Position numbers and translations under genes: made by a program | The notes under the pieces: generated by a model | Seen by the model: the letters and a program-made list of their open reading frames with translations, nothing else | Databases searched by the model: none | Told to the model about the DNA's origin: nothing | NCBI GenBank assembly: GCA_018400815.1 | Contig: JAGYLS010000008.1 | Location: 1-44,567, forward strand | From: Candidatus Oleincola secundus | GTDB taxonomy: Bacteria; Atribacterota; Phoenicimicrobiia; Phoenicimicrobiales; Stramentimicrobiaceae | Length of the DNA stretch: 44,567 bases | Direction: 5' to 3' | Part shown: one piece after another, positions 514-44,567 of the stretch | Layout of the letters: each line of letters begins with the position of its first letter | Position numbering within the stretch: position 1 is the stretch's first letter

Positions 514-1752
514 TCAAGTGGTAATGCCTATTTCACCAAGCGAATGACTAACCAATTGATAGACAATATCTTTATTGCACCAGGAAACAAATATTAAGAT
601 ATCGGTTTTTATAGTCGTCATTTCCAGAATGTTGATGTTATTCTCGGCCAAGGGACGAGTAATTCTCTCGATAATCCCCGGCGTTTCAATAAAATTTCTA
701 CTGCTAACTACGATCAGGGCAATATCTTTCTTAGATGTAACTGATTTTAATTTTTCATTTTTTAATACAGAATAATGCACTAAATCATAAGCTTTTTTAC
801 AATACTTTTCAGATACATAAATACCAATATACTGAAGCCCCATGGCTATACTTTGTATACTAATCTCATATTTTGACAATGGTGTAATTATTTCCTTTAA
901 AATACCAGGGGTTTCTAATATCTGTTCTCCTATGATAGTCAATAAACAGAGTTTTTCTTGAAAAATATTAACTTTACTTGAGTAACTGCCTTCTATCTCT
1001 GTCCCGGGAGAGTCCAAATCTCCATTTTGGAAATGAATTATTTTTGCTTTCATTTTACTTTTTTTATATTTTAATGCCCTGGGATGCAATACCCTTGCAC
1101 CGCCTTCCGCTAAAATTCCCATCTCTTCCACGCTTATTCTTGGAAGCGTTTCTACTTTTTTAATTATCCGGGGATCAGCAGAAGATACACCAAGAGCATC
1201 TGTAACAATAATAACTTCATCAGCATGAATAAAATTAGCCAGGGCAAAGGCTGTAACGTCACTACCCCCTCTACCCAATGAAGTGATTTGTCCATCCTGG
1301 TTATTCCTACCTAAGAAACCACAAACAACCGGAATAACCTGTTGTTCCAACAGTGGTTCTAAATATTGTCTACATTGCTTTTTACTCTGTTCAGAGATAA
1401 TACCTGCCTCCAGGTAATCCGAATCAGTAATGATGGGAAATTCTTCCTTTGAAGGATCAAAAGCCACTGCTTTCATACCATTTGCTTTTAAGGAAGAAGC
1501 AAACAATTGGGCACTCATTCTTTCGCCAAAAGATATAAAATCAGCATAATCTTTTTGTTCAAAGCTGGATTTTGTCGAATCAGAAAGCAAAGAAATGAGA
1601 CGGTCAGTCGTATCACCCATTGCTGAAACGACCACTAAAATTTCAATATCTTCATTTATTTTCTTAGCAATCGATTGAACTGCCTCATTGATTCTTTCCG
1701 AATTTTGAATACTTGTTCCACCAAATTTAACTACAATTCTAATTGCAATCAC
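514..1752 (-). CDS. lysC: Aspartate kinase with C-terminal ACT domains
   Basis: VVKFGGTS, VVVSAMGDTTD, GERMSA, LGRGGSD and ADPRI motifs; two ACT-like repeats (ETPGI). Exact start uncertain (GTG 1752 or an ATT a few codons downstream). Confidence 0.93.
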   Translation of the reverse strand: MIAIRIVVKFGGTSIQNSERINEAVQSIAKKINEDIEILVVVSAMGDTTDRLISLLSDSTKSSFEQKDYADFISFGERMSAQLFASSLKANGMKAVAFDPSKEEFPIITDSDYLEAGIISEQSKKQCRQYLEPLLEQQVIPVVCGFLGRNNQDGQITSLGRGGSDVTAFALANFIHADEVIIVTDALGVSSADPRIIKKVETLPRISVEEMGILAEGGARVLHPRALKYKKSKMKAKIIHFQNGDLDSPGTEIEGSYSSKVNIFQEKLCLLTIIGEQILETPGILKEIITPLSKYEISIQSIAMGLQYIGIYVSEKYCKKAYDLVHYSVLKNEKLKSVTSKKDIALIVVSSRNFIETPGIIERITRPLAENNINILEMTTIKTDILIFVSWCNKDIVYQLVSHSLGEIGITT

Positions 1753-1817: not shown

Positions 1818-2026
1818 AATAAATATCGCACCCTCATAACGGGTGGCTTTAAGAACCTCTAAAAGAGGTTTAACTTTTTACCACTTTTTAGCTCTTTTTC
1901 TTTCGATTTTTTATTTAACCTTTAGCTATAATATTTCTAAGCAATCGTACTTCCAACTTTGGACTTCAGGTGAAAAATTGTCATCTAGCTACTCTTAATC
2001 TTTTTATAGTAAAACCCATTTATTTA
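1818..2026 (-). mobile_element. ~250-bp hairpin-ended repeat (putative IS200/IS605-derived non-autonomous element), copy 1, long part; interrupted by the group II intron
   Basis: Near-identical to 7509-7715 and 21357-21555 (TAAATATCGCACCC...GGGTGGCTTTAAGAACCTCT...CTTTCGATTTTTTATTTAACCTTTAGCTATAAT...TCATCTAGCTACTCTTAATC...TATTTA). Similarity stops at 2026 and resumes at 3891. Confidence 0.85.
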
Positions 2027-3890
2027 ATCGAGTAGGAGGTAAATAATTAATTTATCTACCGTCCCCTCACACCACCGTACGTACCGTTCGGTATACGGCG
2101 GTTCACAAAGCACTACGAATTTCACAATAACGATTTGTCAGGCTCATAAGCCTAAGGTTAGCCCAATAGGCATTTGGTAGAGCACTATTTAAAGAATCCC
2201 CAGCGATATGCCAGAAGGCTTTGCGGGTATTGGCTAAACTTAGCGCTTTCCAGTCTGGCAGTCGTAATTGAATCAGTTTTCGATATCTGGTACGAATCTT
2301 CTTCCACTGTTTCCATAAACACATCCGTAATCTTCTTCTCATCCAGCCCTCGATTCTTGTTAGGACATAGAAAGTATCAGATAGAGAGAAGTATTGTATC
2401 CATCCTCTTAAGTAGGTATTAAGTCGTAAGATTCGTTGGTTGATATTCTGTCCATTACTTCTGGAGGTAATTTCCCGAATCTTCCTCTTACATCTTTCGA
2501 TGGCCTGGGGAGCAATGCGAATACGGATACGCTCCTGATAGTGATACAGATTAAAACCCAGGAACTTTCTTTTATCCGATACATCTACGGCACTCTTTTG
2601 TAAATTTACCTTTAATTTCAATCTTGCCTCCAAGAAAGCAGTGATACTTTCCATAACCCTTTGGCCTGCCCTTTTGCTTTTAAGGTAGATGTTGCAATCG
2701 TCGGCATATCGTACAAATTTATGGCCTCTTCTTTCCAGTTCCCTATCCAGCTCATCTAAGAAGATGTTGGCCAATAGAGGGCTCAGGGGACCACCTTGAG
2801 GTGTGCCTTTTTGGGTCTGTACTTTTACTCCGCTTATCATTACTCCTGATTGAAGGTAGAGACGGATTAGTTTTAGTATTCTTTTGTCTTTTATCTTACG
2901 GGCTACTCTGGCCATAAGCATATCGTGGTTTATACGATCAAAGAATTTCTCTATATCTAAATCTACTACCCACTGGTATCCTTCTTCCAGGTATTGTTTT
3001 GCTTTTCTTATGGCATCGTGTGCCTTTCGATTTGGACGAAAGCCGAAACTAAAGGGAGAAAATCCAGGGTCAAAGATATCGGTCAGTATTTGCAAGAGGG
3101 CCTGTTGGATAAGTCGGTCAATGACAGTAGGTATCCCCAATAGTCTCTCTCCTCCGTTTGGTTTAGGAATTTCTACCTGAAGAACGGGTTGAGGTTTATA
3201 GTCTCCTTTTAGTAGTTGTTCTTTGATGGATAACCAGTTTTGACGAAGATAAGGTTTGAGTTCTGCTACAGTCAGGTTGTCGATACCCGGAGCTCCTTTA
3301 TTCTGTTCTACCCTTCTTAATGCCTTTAGCATATTTTGTCTAGACAATACCTCCTCCATTAAATCGTTATTCTGTTCTCCGTGGGATTTATCTTTGGTTT
3401 GTACCGGATACATATTCGGCTCTCCCTGATTAGTCGGCAGCTGCACCGCTTTCTTTTCAGGGTAGACTCTCTTGGTATGAGTTTTCTGCCTTCTTGATAT
3501 GTTTCTCGAACTTACCATGTTCATCCCTCACTTCATGTTCAGCCCTTCAGATACCACTCAATATTACTGAGTGCCATCCTAATATGGCTTTTGCTGACTT
3601 CTGACATATTAATATGTCAGACCTCCCTGGGTAAGAATAATAGCCTTCACCCCATCTACCTGCTACATCTACCACACAATCTTTTGGCAGTATTGGACTT
3701 TGTTTTGAGATGCAAACTCATCCAAATTGTATGGCCTTATATATAGTTCGTATACCTCAGGCCAGGGTTTTGCCGCTGACTTCCTTCAGATTCCACCTCG
3801 CGATGGACACCCTTGTCTTAAGCTAATGGTTGCTACTGCCAACCCCATAGCAGACTTTCACTGCCAAGCTATTACTCATGCTAGGCACAC
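2027..3890 (-). mobile_element. Group IIC self-splicing intron/retroelement, full length (1864 nt)
   Basis: Minus strand begins GTGTGCCTAGCATGAG (3890) and ends CCTCCTACTCGAT (2027). IIC-type domain V GAACCGCCGTATACCGAACGGTACGTACGGTGGTGT with CGC triad at ~2069-2104. Boundaries confirmed by empty-site copies: removing 2027-3890 restores ATTTA|ACCATTACCACC. Confidence 0.96.
2103..3524 (-). CDS. ltrA: Group II intron reverse transcriptase/maturase (class C, no endonuclease domain)
   Basis: GAPGID, IPKPNGGERLLGIPTVIDRLIQQA, DLDIEKFFD, GTPQGGPLSPLLANI, RYADD and X-domain RGWIQYF motifs; no HNH tail; stop abuts domain V. The second ATG (3518) is better spaced from the GAGGG RBS. Confidence 0.96.
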   Translation of the reverse strand: MNMVSSRNISRRQKTHTKRVYPEKKAVQLPTNQGEPNMYPVQTKDKSHGEQNNDLMEEVLSRQNMLKALRRVEQNKGAPGIDNLTVAELKPYLRQNWLSIKEQLLKGDYKPQPVLQVEIPKPNGGERLLGIPTVIDRLIQQALLQILTDIFDPGFSPFSFGFRPNRKAHDAIRKAKQYLEEGYQWVVDLDIEKFFDRINHDMLMARVARKIKDKRILKLIRLYLQSGVMISGVKVQTQKGTPQGGPLSPLLANIFLDELDRELERRGHKFVRYADDCNIYLKSKRAGQRVMESITAFLEARLKLKVNLQKSAVDVSDKRKFLGFNLYHYQERIRIRIAPQAIERCKRKIREITSRSNGQNINQRILRLNTYLRGWIQYFSLSDTFYVLTRIEGWMRRRLRMCLWKQWKKIRTRYRKLIQLRLPDWKALSLANTRKAFWHIAGDSLNSALPNAYWANLRLMSLTNRYCEIRSAL

Positions 3891-3934
3891 ACCATTACCA
3901 CCTTCTTAGAAGGTGGTTTTTTATGGTTAAATAA
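3891..3934 (-). mobile_element. Repeat copy 1, terminal palindrome (5' exon of the intron)
   Basis: ACCATTACCACCTTCTTAGAAGGTGGTTTTTTATGGTTAAATAA, matching the ends of copies 2-4 (7716-7758, ~13690-13732, 21556-21597). Confidence 0.88.
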
Positions 3935-3962
3935 ACATTGGAATAGTTTTGCTATCATAAAA

Positions 3963-5141
3963 TCATACTTTATTATTGTTAAAAATTTCTGCTTTCTTCA
4001 GCCTGTTAATCGCTTCTTTTAGCCTTGGCACATCAACGGTCAAAGCAATTCGCACATATCCCTCACCATGTTGACCATAGCCAATGCCAGGAGTCACGAT
4101 AATGCCGGTTTTATCTAAAATATGGTTCGAAAAATCAATCGCATTCATACGATTGGGCGTGGGAACCCAAACATAAAAAGTTGCTTTAGGCGGCTTAATA
4201 TTCCAGCCTAATTGATTCAATCCATCTACTACAACATTACGTCTCTCGGTATACATATTAATTAATCTGGGAATATGGTCCTGAGGACCAGACAAAGCAG
4301 TAATTCCGGCTTCCTGGATTGCCTTAAAAATACCTGAATCAACATTAGTTTTTATAATAGAAAGAGCTGATACCGCCTCAGAACTACCAACAGCAAAGCC
4401 AATTCTCCAACCGGTCATATTGTAAGTTTTTGATAGTGAGTGGAACTCCAAACAAACATCTCTAGCCCCATCTATCTCTAAAAAACTGGGTGCCTGGTAT
4501 CCATCAAAAGCCAACTCTGAATAAGCAAAATCATGACAGATTAAAAGATCATATTTCTTGGCAAAATCTACGACTTCTTTAAAATATTCCTTGTTGGCAA
4601 TAGCACCGGTAGGGTTGTTTGGATAATTTAAAAAGATTAATTTCGCTTTCCTGGCTATTTTTTCATCTATTTTATCTAAATCAGGAAGATAACCATTTTC
4701 TTCCAATAAAGGCATATAATATGGTTCTCCATTGGCAAATAATGTCCCTGTTTTATAAACCGGATAAGCAGGGTCAGGGATGAGACTAATATCACCAGGA
4801 TCAATAAAAGCAAGAAATACATGAGCAATTCCTTCTTTTGATCCTATTAAAGAAATAACTTCTTTTTGTGGGTTCAAATTGACACCAAACCTTTTCAGAT
4901 ACCAATCAGAAACCGCAGACCTAAATTCTTTAGTACCTTCATAGGGTGGGTAATCATGTGTTTTGGGATCTCTGGCACTTTCTGCCAGTTGATTAATAAT
5001 ATGTGCTGGTGTAGGTTGATCAGGGTCTCCAATTCCCAAATTAATAATATCTACACCTTTCTCTATAGCTGCCTCTTTTTTTTTGTCGATTTCCGCAAAA
5101 AGATAGGGTGGCACTTTTTGGATTCTTTGGGCAATTCTCAT
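3963..5141 (-). CDS. dapL: LL-diaminopimelate aminotransferase
   Basis: Class I PLP aminotransferase (PPYLFAEID, LGIGDPDQPTP, GSKEGIAH, NYPNNPTGA, SLSKTYNMTGWRIG); lies directly downstream of dapF in the lysine operon. Confidence 0.92.
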   Translation of the reverse strand: MRIAQRIQKVPPYLFAEIDKKKEAAIEKGVDIINLGIGDPDQPTPAHIINQLAESARDPKTHDYPPYEGTKEFRSAVSDWYLKRFGVNLNPQKEVISLIGSKEGIAHVFLAFIDPGDISLIPDPAYPVYKTGTLFANGEPYYMPLLEENGYLPDLDKIDEKIARKAKLIFLNYPNNPTGAIANKEYFKEVVDFAKKYDLLICHDFAYSELAFDGYQAPSFLEIDGARDVCLEFHSLSKTYNMTGWRIGFAVGSSEAVSALSIIKTNVDSGIFKAIQEAGITALSGPQDHIPRLINMYTERRNVVVDGLNQLGWNIKPPKATFYVWVPTPNRMNAIDFSNHILDKTGIIVTPGIGYGQHGEGYVRIALTVDVPRLKEAINRLKKAEIFNNNKV

Positions 5142-7508: not shown

Positions 7509-7758
7509 AGTAAATATCGCACCCGCATAGCGAGTGGCTTTAAGAACCTCTAAAGAGGTTTAACTTTTTAGCTATTTTTAGCTCTTTTTCTTTCGATTTT
7601 TTATTTAACCTTTAGCTATAATATTTCTAAGCAATATAATTTCCAACTTTGACTTCAGGTAAAAAATTGTCATCTAGCTACTCTTAATCTTTTTATGGTA
7701 AAACCATTTTATTTAACCATTACCACCTTCTTAGAAGGTGGTTTTTATGGTTAAATAA
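7509..7758 (-). mobile_element. Hairpin-ended repeat copy 2 (intact, empty intron site)
   Basis: Full-length match to copies 1 and 4. Ends: TCGCACCCGCATAGCGAGTGGC plus AACCTCTAAAGAGGTT hairpins, and the TTTATTTAACCATTACCACCTTCTTAGAAGGTGGTTTTTATGGTTAAATAA palindrome. Confidence 0.88.
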
Positions 7759-7794
7759 AAAAGCAATCAATAAGCGCTGAGCCCATCGATTGCT
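7757..7794 (-). terminator. Intrinsic terminator, expression platform of the lysine riboswitch
   Basis: Minus strand AGCAATCGAT-GGGCTCAGCGCTT-ATTGATTGCT followed by a T run. CATCGA just 3' of the aptamer P1 could pair with TCGATG as an antiterminator. Confidence 0.8.
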
Positions 7795-7844
7795 CTAAAT
7801 AAATAACAAAGCTTTCTTTTTACCTCCCTCTTATCTCTTCTCGA

Positions 7845-8026
7845 TGAGATAGCGCACCATCAGAAACCGGGAGTTGCTTCTGATGACAGTACTATGATTG
7901 TTGACCATAGTCCCAGCCTGAATATTAGAGCAATATTTTTCAGGCTTCGGCGAAGACCCCTTTCCTGATAAATCATTGCAGCTCAGCTCATTATCAGTAC
8001 TCTTGATCGTTCGCGCCTCTACCCCA
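7845..8026 (-). ncRNA. Lysine riboswitch (L-box) aptamer
   Basis: Minus strand GGGGTAGAGGCGCG...GAGTA...GGAAAGGGG...CGCCGAA...CTGGG...ACTGTCA...GCGCTATCTC, the conserved L-box elements in order, upstream of lysA. Confidence 0.95.
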
Positions 8027-8071
8027 CTTCAGATAAAAAGTGAGGCAATTCAATATTTAATTGTTATAAAC

Positions 8072-13599: not shown

Positions 13600-13732
13600 A
13601 GTAAACATCGCATCCGCAAAGAGGGTGGCTTTAAGAACCTCTAGAAAGGTTTAACTTTTTAGCTCTTTTTCTTTCGATTTTTTATTTAACCTTTACCACC
13701 TTCTTAGAAGGTGGTTTTTTATGGTTAAATAA
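13600..13732 (-). mobile_element. Hairpin-ended repeat copy 3 (internally deleted)
   Basis: Both ends retained; about 108 bp between the two TTTATTTAACC direct repeats are missing. Confidence 0.85.
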
Positions 13733-21356: not shown

Positions 21357-21597
21357 AGTAAATATCGCACCCACATAGCGGGTGGCTTTAAGAAGTTCTA
21401 AAAGACGTTAAACTTTTTAGCTCTTTTTCTTTCGATTTTTTATTTAACCTTTAGCTATAATATTTCTAAGCAATCGTACTTCCAACTTTGGACTTCAGGT
21501 GAAAAATTGTCATCTAGCTACTCTTAATCTTTTTATGGTAAAACCAATTTATTTAACCATTACCACCTTCTTAGAAGGTGTTTTTATGGTTAAATAA
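21357..21597 (-). mobile_element. Hairpin-ended repeat copy 4 (intact, empty intron site)
   Basis: Full-length match to copies 1 and 2; lies between the class III aminotransferase stop and pyrR. Confidence 0.88.
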
Positions 21598-44541: not shown

Positions 44542-44562
44542 TTTATTTAACCATTACCACCT
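44542..44562. repeat. Fragment of the repeat's terminal palindrome at the window end
   Basis: TTTATTTAACCATTACCACCTT matches the palindrome arm in copies 2 and 4; cut off by the window edge. Confidence 0.65.
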
Positions 44563-44567
44563 TTTTT

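Follow-up and report, generated by a model that had tools for sequence, protein, structure and literature searches.

In most accounts, group IIC introns shelter downstream of transcription terminators, the IIC-attC introns being a known specialised branch. The window, that is the whole stretch analysed (44,567 nucleotides, contig JAGYLS010000008.1 of Candidatus Oleincola secundus, assembly GCA_018400815.1), raises the question of what such an intron is doing inside a short repeat between two lysine-pathway genes. The intron (2027..3890; like all window features given below, on the minus strand) is intact, belongs to group IIC (bacterial class C), and splits a 248-bp repeat 6 nt behind the hairpin of the repeat's left end. 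The repeat, taken in an original prediction for a miniature mobile element, was identified as a derivative of IS200 and is called a PATE below. The preferred reading, held at a probability of roughly 65%, is that a group IIC lineage gave up U-tract terminators for the hairpins at the ends of Y1/HUH elements, and that the branch carrying this intron was retargeted to the PATE left end.

A group IIC intron in the left end of an IS200-derived repeat

The intron was 1864 nt long, beginning with GTGTG and ending with CGAT, in agreement with GUGYG...AY termini; its limits and class were established from Rfam matches, these termini and the clean rejoining of its flanks. Domains V-VI, with a CGC triad and a short domain V, were located at 2027..2103 (Rfam Intron_gpII, RF00029 alignment), and domain I models matched at 3636-3807 (group-II-D1D4-3) and 3542-3633 (D1D4-1). 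The intact open reading frame (ORF) at 2103..3524 encoded a reverse transcriptase (RT)/maturase of 473 aa from the first ATG, with a YADD motif and only RVT_1 and GIIM as Pfam domains, devoid of an endonuclease domain. Its best solved relative was the GsI-IIC RT (E 1e-165), and the best PDB matches were IIC proteins; the alignment with GsI-IIC RT begins at residue 55, and the true start may lie further in. Exact look-up of the protein in the protein collection gave no match.

Cutting out 2027-3890 restored an empty repeat, as had been claimed, with the rejoined sequence aligning over 252-255 nt at 92-93% identity to the copies near 7510 and 21358. The exon features of the original prediction also held: the 5' exon was a 9-bp stem with a TAA loop (3897..3917) followed by AATGGT, and the 3' exon began with T. 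Exon-binding site 1 (EBS1) is AUCU (3708..3711, read 3711-3708), where sister introns have UGGU, UUGU, UAGU or UAGA. It pairs at three of four positions, one of them a G:U wobble, with intron-binding site 1 (IBS1), TGGT (3891..3894), which follows the stem after a 2-nt spacer. The putative IBS3 was T at 2026, the +1 base being T or C in relatives with a cleanly placed 3' end. Insertion 6 nt behind a 9-bp stem, with a short EBS1-IBS1 pairing, is consistent with a IIC-type site, recognition being described as a DNA stem, spacer, IBS1 and IBS3 (PMC10190682). Again as predicted, no U-tract terminator was found upstream on the intron strand; the hairpin scored as terminator-like on the plus strand only.

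The intron-filled element spanned 1819-3930 with the minus strand as its active strand, the TTAT at 3931-3934 being flank. Its left end formed the 5' exon (3891..3930) and matched that of a tnpA-bearing IS200 (L234) with 91% identity over 45 nt, while body and right end formed the 3' exon (1819..2026), placed by rejoining and by right-end alignment. A Y1 transposase search of 52 genomes of the order recovered IS200 elements in G043, G045 and G036 (L234-L236) with both ends matching the repeat, at 82-85% identity over ~70 nt on the left and 77-78% over 48-50 nt on the right. The PATE had no ORF, and in the genome carrying the window (G000; 86% complete, 2.0 Mb) the IS200 parent was matched only at its ends.

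Subterminal hairpins were present at both ends. The left one (3897..3917) was delimited by folding; the right one (1829..1845) was weakened in the window copy by two changes from consensus, and that of one folded copy was weak (z -1.35). The retained IS200-type target TTTAT (3931..3935) lies outside the element, TTTAT preceding 40 of 47 copies and conservation stopping upstream. By the IS608 guide/cleavage rule (PMC5934647), the A-tract at 3917..3922 would contain the left guide AAAA, AAAG at 1847-1850 would be the right guide, and TTAT at 1819-1822 the right cleavage 4-mer. An AAAG before the right hairpin together with TTAC at the end is the guide/cleavage pair that IS608 is described to have on its left side, and members of that family are also reported to prefer a certain +1 base (PMC5934647); the +1 base of the PATE was T in 78 of 86 copies. 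By analogy, AAAA and TTAT would act as the left-end pair. The right-end 5-mer was TTTAC in 27/47 copies and TTTAT in 7/47, and left and right 5-mers were identical in 6/47 only, indicating the absence of target duplication; an empty orthologous site (L278), read by eye, had a single ATAAA. Because of its IS200 ends, this target/cleavage pattern and the lack of duplication, the repeat is best classed as a PATE, the term used for ends-only, non-autonomous IS200/IS605 derivatives (PMC7290912, PMC10055086). A classical miniature inverted-repeat transposable element, with terminal inverted repeats and a target duplication, was rejected for want of the target-site duplication. An IS200 on contig C133 was likewise rejected as the parent, since its ends differ; this element (L001, G000:C133:16858-17650) has an intact tnpA and adjoins the right end of a PATE copy.

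Three copies of the repeat lie near the intron, all intron-free: 7510..7754, between a lysine riboswitch and lysA; 13601..13728, reduced to 128 bp by an internal deletion; and 21358..21593. The three predicted empty junctions were confirmed, but that at 13688/13689 reads AGGT instead of TGGT at the IBS1 position. The repeat is genome-wide and not a local family of four copies, with 86 right-end motifs in G000. A left-end hairpin tail lay within 300 nt of 47 of the 86, the set on which the left-end statistics are based, with a median element length of 237 bp. Copies are almost always intergenic, broadly as claimed, one of the 86 lying inside an ORF of at least 120 aa. The repeat was matched in 27 of 61 genomes, G000 included. 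Of 84 copies scored, 72 had the top strand of the PATE on the G-rich strand; the intron, too, lies on the window's G-rich strand.

Among the 47 left ends, 13 were near-perfect palindromes devoid of the A-tract guide (e.g., C13, C46, C79, C112, C132, C137, C151, C170). In these G000 left ends either strand presents the intron's target, and the copies concerned may have lost mobility. The start of a left-end-like palindrome, cut by the contig end, was seen at 44542-44567 of the window. Two longer Y1 proteins, with open frames of 256 and 305 aa, were encoded at G000:C159:24646-24981 and C119:890-1213 and are presumably RAYT-like, judging by their length.

Two insertions at one nucleotide and the sites of related introns

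Re-use of the repeat as a homing site, as the original prediction proposed, was borne out by a second intron (L150), which differs from the first at 5 positions in 1049 nt (99.5% identity) and meets a different copy of the palindrome at the identical nucleotide, its 3' junction lying off the contig. The L150 flank matched contig C155 of G000 at 96.8% over 95 nt, and the PATE body on C155 was identical to the window body at only 127 of 209 positions (61%). Moreover, the L150 5' exon kept the C155-type loop and A-tract and not those of the window copy. With bodies 61% identical and its own loop kept, the intron moved without its host element, and the AUCU intron has thus inserted twice independently at one nucleotide. 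The L150 contig probably comes from a close strain and was binned wrongly, as G061, to which it is assigned, has no other match to the repeat. An intron-free allele of the L150 locus was seen at G000:C155:9590-9640, with a 13-nt deletion ending exactly at the insertion point, perhaps the trace of a lost intron or of a failed insertion.

The same comparison bears on whether L150 owes its position not to retrohoming but to transposition of the whole composite of intron and PATE, or to recombination among PATEs. The putative TnpA cis elements are all intact around the intron, and the repeat is multicopy with hybrids and deletions among its copies. Given the divergence of the host bodies, compared with the 99.5% identity of the introns, the earlier suggestion that the composite could move as a unit does not account for the two known copies; exchange would need a crossover within ~15 nt to leave the L150 loop and A-tract in place, the window copy's right hairpin carries its two changes, and no cognate tnpA was found in G000. 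This origin of L150 is accordingly given only a very slight chance.

A related view is that the intron-loaded PATE is a two-way hybrid, the group II counterpart of an IStron, because the insertion site spares every TnpA signal. TnpA supplied in trans would then move the 2.1-kb composite while the intron, with a re-tuned EBS1, would retrohome among empty copies, and splicing together with read-through would keep the composite tolerated and expressed in operons. In IStrons, which combine a group I intron with IS200/IS605 (as outlined in PMC4227781), a self-splicing intron is likewise joined to IS200-family ends, whereas the window has a group II retroelement, equipped with an RT of its own, inside a transposon remnant, and joint mobility would be hypothetical. 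The chance of such a hybrid is small. The earlier suggestion that the insertion may immobilise the copy appears unlikely: TnpA is described as needing target, guide and hairpin (PMC5934647), these stay together with the 3' flank on the 5' side of the intron, and the outer palindrome that the intron splits is imperfect in the autonomous IS200 parent.

The notion of self-propagating, renewable landing pads remained unproven. With a parent-family query, no cognate tnpA was found in G000 or G001, and the closest pair among 44 PATE copies was 94% identical, with a median of 68% (946 pairs), figures to be read with the caveat that near-identical repeats assemble poorly. From these identities the pads look older than the intron. 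Mobilisation of PATEs in trans by TnpA is putative, with presence and absence seen between relatives: both PATE and intron were missing from the dapL-lysC interval in all three orthologues found among five genomes, and also in a joint from run X7. The ORF of the intron is intact, and the 99.5%-identical copy elsewhere implies recent mobility.

A domain-I tree was built from 33 of 41 extracted intron sequences, after L022, L023, L031, L227, L228, L229, L232 and L233 were dropped as short or deleted. It placed the window intron in a clade of seven (support 97/94) with L150, L043, L008, L033, L143 and L019, the last a long branch of odd composition. Six of the seven 5' exons matched IS200 ends (PATE left ends in two cases, right ends in two more, a solo hairpin carrying a right-end tail in one and a degenerate left end in one), the seventh matched a GTAG repetitive extragenic palindrome (REP)-like repeat, and none was a U-tract terminator; being related, these members do not count as independent events. 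The seventh site, that of L143, was a GTAG-type palindrome that matched each strand of G047 and G045 about 12-15 times. Intron fragments L229, L232, L224 and L022 also followed IS200 right ends, L022 that of the PATE's own parent family, and tnpA lay directly upstream of the intron in L043, L232 and L022. At L013 and L224 (G019:C1:16700-21500), fragments of IIC introns stand in tandem downstream of a palindrome of the IS200 right-end type, one of them split by a further IS200 in reverse orientation.

In other lineages, all eight terminator sites, classed by eye, lacked an IS200 match and had 5-7 T in their last 8 nt. A terminator-using Atribacterota lineage (L016-L018, L020) coexists with the clade in the same families. 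Other copies of the window intron sitting behind ordinary terminators, the outcome that would have spoken for chance insertion, were thus not seen in the intron's own clade, whose preference is wider than this repeat and extends to IS200-family and REP hairpins generally. As a separate observation, L016, L017, L020 and L023, from four genomes, all stand behind one leader-like element whose terminator is nearly identical among them; a regulatory RNA family may be the target here.

EBS1 covaried with the site, UGGU or UUGU occurring with TCTA, AUCU with TGGT, UAAA with TTTA or ATTA, and GGGG with CCCC. Between the right-end TCTA sites (UGGU/UUGU) and the left-end TGGT sites (AUCU), three EBS1 positions changed together with the type of site. 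The U that forms the fourth EBS1 base of the UGGU and AUCU introns is opposite T at -4, and most sites have A at -5; a looped-out pairing at -5 is possible, by analogy with the discontinuous EBS1 pair in the E.r. intron structure (PMC10190682).

How the site may be chosen

Left ends accounted for 46 of all 876 hairpins in the candidate-site count. Among hairpins followed by G[AG]T and a pyrimidine, their share rose to 53/207, and to 52/104 with a spacer range of 16-17, which is circular in that it was taken from the observed site; among intergenic EBS1-compatible hairpins it was 53/98, or 52/66 with this narrow range. Left ends thus make up 26-79% of AUC-compatible hairpins, suggesting that short pairing and abundance may suffice. 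A second hit is unlikely for a blind hairpin seeker and expected once EBS1 reads AUC, and the data need no recognition of the PATE beyond a stem and a short pairing.

These counts also give an ordinary hairpin-seeking IIC intron an opening: it might simply have hit the repeat twice, strong repeat hairpins being the commonest safe stems in AT-rich genomes. Depending on spacer range and intergenic filter, the AUC rule gives a second-hit probability of 0.26-0.79, and unrelated IIC introns do occupy scattered non-terminator sites, 10 of 70 distant IIC exons having fewer than 4 T and 60 having at least 4. Against it stand the small share of left ends among all hairpins, the restriction of 7/7 clade sites to IS200-type or REP hairpins while the terminator lineage coexists in the same families, and the joint change of EBS1 and site type. 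On balance this explanation is unlikely, although not negligible.

Targeting could also depend on TnpA, if transposase-bound or nicked single-stranded ends exposed or primed the site. Sister insertions at right ends do fall at the point where the conservation of intron-free IS200 right ends stops, which would be the cleavage position. The left-end site, in contrast, is 40 nt inside the element and distant from that position, one clade site lies on the strand opposite a GTAG REP, and the EBS1 covariation accounts for the positions without a protein partner; this makes a role of TnpA very unlikely.

Returning to the retargeting of a IIC lineage to end hairpins, several observations weigh against it. 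G000 has one full copy of the intron, plus a diverged one that runs off contig C22 at its 5' end; against this one filled PATE, an intact empty site was found in 40 of the 47 other scored copies. Known insertions of AUCU introns number two only, and the first is the one selected for study. A strict 4-of-4 pairing rule leaves the left end with 2 of 81 sites. When no intron is present, the site is buried in the outer stem, which is AT-rich and 13-14 bp long (-17.5 kcal/mol, z -6.6). The junction pattern had one exact match in 86 genomes of the phylum, the window itself, plus four two-mismatch matches, uninspected and unlike intron starts, and none in viral contigs. A crude count of at least 4 T is passed by the clade exons L143 and L033 too, although neither has a T run. 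Finally, other IIC lineages follow REP-like or repeated hairpins as well (L213, L216, L217, L224, L226).

Further instances of such sites were noted. L213, L230 and L233 (G086) are three copies of another IIC intron, with EBS1 GGGG where seen, each of which follows one and the same repeated element with a double hairpin, so that repeats are targeted in a second case. The IIC introns L216 and L226 (G066), L217 (G063), L038 and L109 stand behind hairpins that lack a U-tract and are presumably REP-like or IS605-like.

Four sequencing runs were compared as contigs and not as raw reads. Joints of 2026 to 3891 occurred in X1 and X7, with sides of 27 and 19 letters that make them indistinguishable from paralogous empty copies. 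Depth in X1, which may be a source of this DNA, was 96-105 in intron-only bins and 33-39 in the flanks, which is a hint only and gives no copy number.

Under the retargeting reading, the lineage would have moved to the end hairpins of IS200 elements, of their PATEs and of GTAG REPs. Sister introns with EBS1 UGGU or UUGU occupy TCTA sites immediately downstream of the hairpins of IS200 right ends, and the present branch would have gained AUCU, fitting TGGT after the left-end hairpin of an abundant PATE, which would thereby have become its main practical homing site. The ribonucleoprotein would bind the 9-bp DNA stem in the single-stranded lagging-strand template, the AT-rich outer stem would melt, EBS1 would pair with GGT and EBS3 with the +1 T, and reverse splicing followed by reverse transcription would complete the insertion. 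Such use of a DNA stem in the single-stranded lagging-strand template, with EBS1 and EBS3 around the junction, is outlined for IIC ribonucleoproteins (PMC10190682, PMC8919778, PMC7306698), and IS200 end hairpins are described as working in the same single-stranded state (PMC7923331), which the shared G-rich strand of PATE and intron would fit. The outer stem of the empty PATE must open, much as IIC-attC introns enter the attC stem. The hairpin not being a terminator on the intron strand, transcripts reading through the lysine operon should include the intron and regain an intact mRNA by splicing.

Gene context, known systems and significance

The composite lies in a same-strand run headed by a lysine riboswitch (7842..8029, RF00168) and containing lysA-, dapF-, dapL- and lysC-like genes, the names being inferred. 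The gene upstream of the intron (3963..5141) encodes a class I/II aminotransferase, named dapL-like from its context, and the downstream gene (514..1752) an aspartokinase-type, lysC-like protein with AA_kinase and ACT domains. A further gene of the run was taken to be dapA-like from its translation. On the intron strand, the search for terminators gave none immediately upstream and one weak match within the upstream gene (4155-4136), so that read-through transcription and splicing are likely in this lysine run; promoter-like matches were at chance level (24 vs 21.3). Farther upstream, a terminator-like hairpin (7760-7796) lies just downstream of the riboswitch; the PATE at 7510-7754 entered at its U-tract, which supplies the TTTAT target, and this insertion may affect riboswitch control of lysA.

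Compared with terminator-targeting IIC introns such as GsI-IIC (PDB 6AR1) and the E.r. intron (PDB 7UIM), the window intron has the same type of RT/maturase without endonuclease and the same combination of stem-loop, short spacer and 4-nt EBS1/IBS1, with a putative +1 IBS3 (as described in PMC10190682). It differs in that its hairpin has no U-tract on the intron strand, belongs to an IS200 end and stands inside an operon-like gene run, while terminator-type IIC introns are described as rarely transcribed (PMC7306698, PMC8919778). The specialisation on a single-strand hairpin of another mobile system is shared with the IIC-attC introns, which are reported to insert after or into the attC stem and whose consensus TTGT/T resembles TGGT/T (PMC7923331). 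Here, in contrast, the target is a Y1-transposase end and no integron attC: an attC bottom-strand insertion was not supported, the site being an IS200 left end between lysine-pathway genes, and no cassette array was seen, though no integron search was made. B.h.I1 and O.i.I1 are further terminator-targeting IIC introns.

The repeat has the ends-only form, subterminal hairpins, insertion 3' of a conserved 4-5-mer and lack of target duplication that are described for PATEs (PMC7290912, PMC10055086). What sets it apart from those accounts are its 86 right ends in 2.0 Mb, the perfected outer palindrome of its left end and its use for intron homing. A mobile element homing in another at a fixed position is also known for group II introns nested in IS genes, such as c-Ha.de.I1 in ISPlu15-like elements (PMC3522654); those are not described as IIC insertions at end hairpins, whereas here a terminal hairpin and a 3-4-nt pairing set the site. 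Titles and abstract openings of the literature yielded no report of IIC introns at IS200 ends or PATEs, and an earlier mention is possible; what is new here is the switch of this branch to the left end of the PATE.

One small clade thus holds a natural retargeting series, from IS200 right end to REP and PATE left end, with matching EBS1 changes, and makes it testable how far IIC site choice is shared between a 3-4-nt EBS1 pairing and the hairpin. For the intron, read-through within an operon would be a route to regular expression, and an apparently old family of miniature transposons would serve as the habitat of a younger retroelement.

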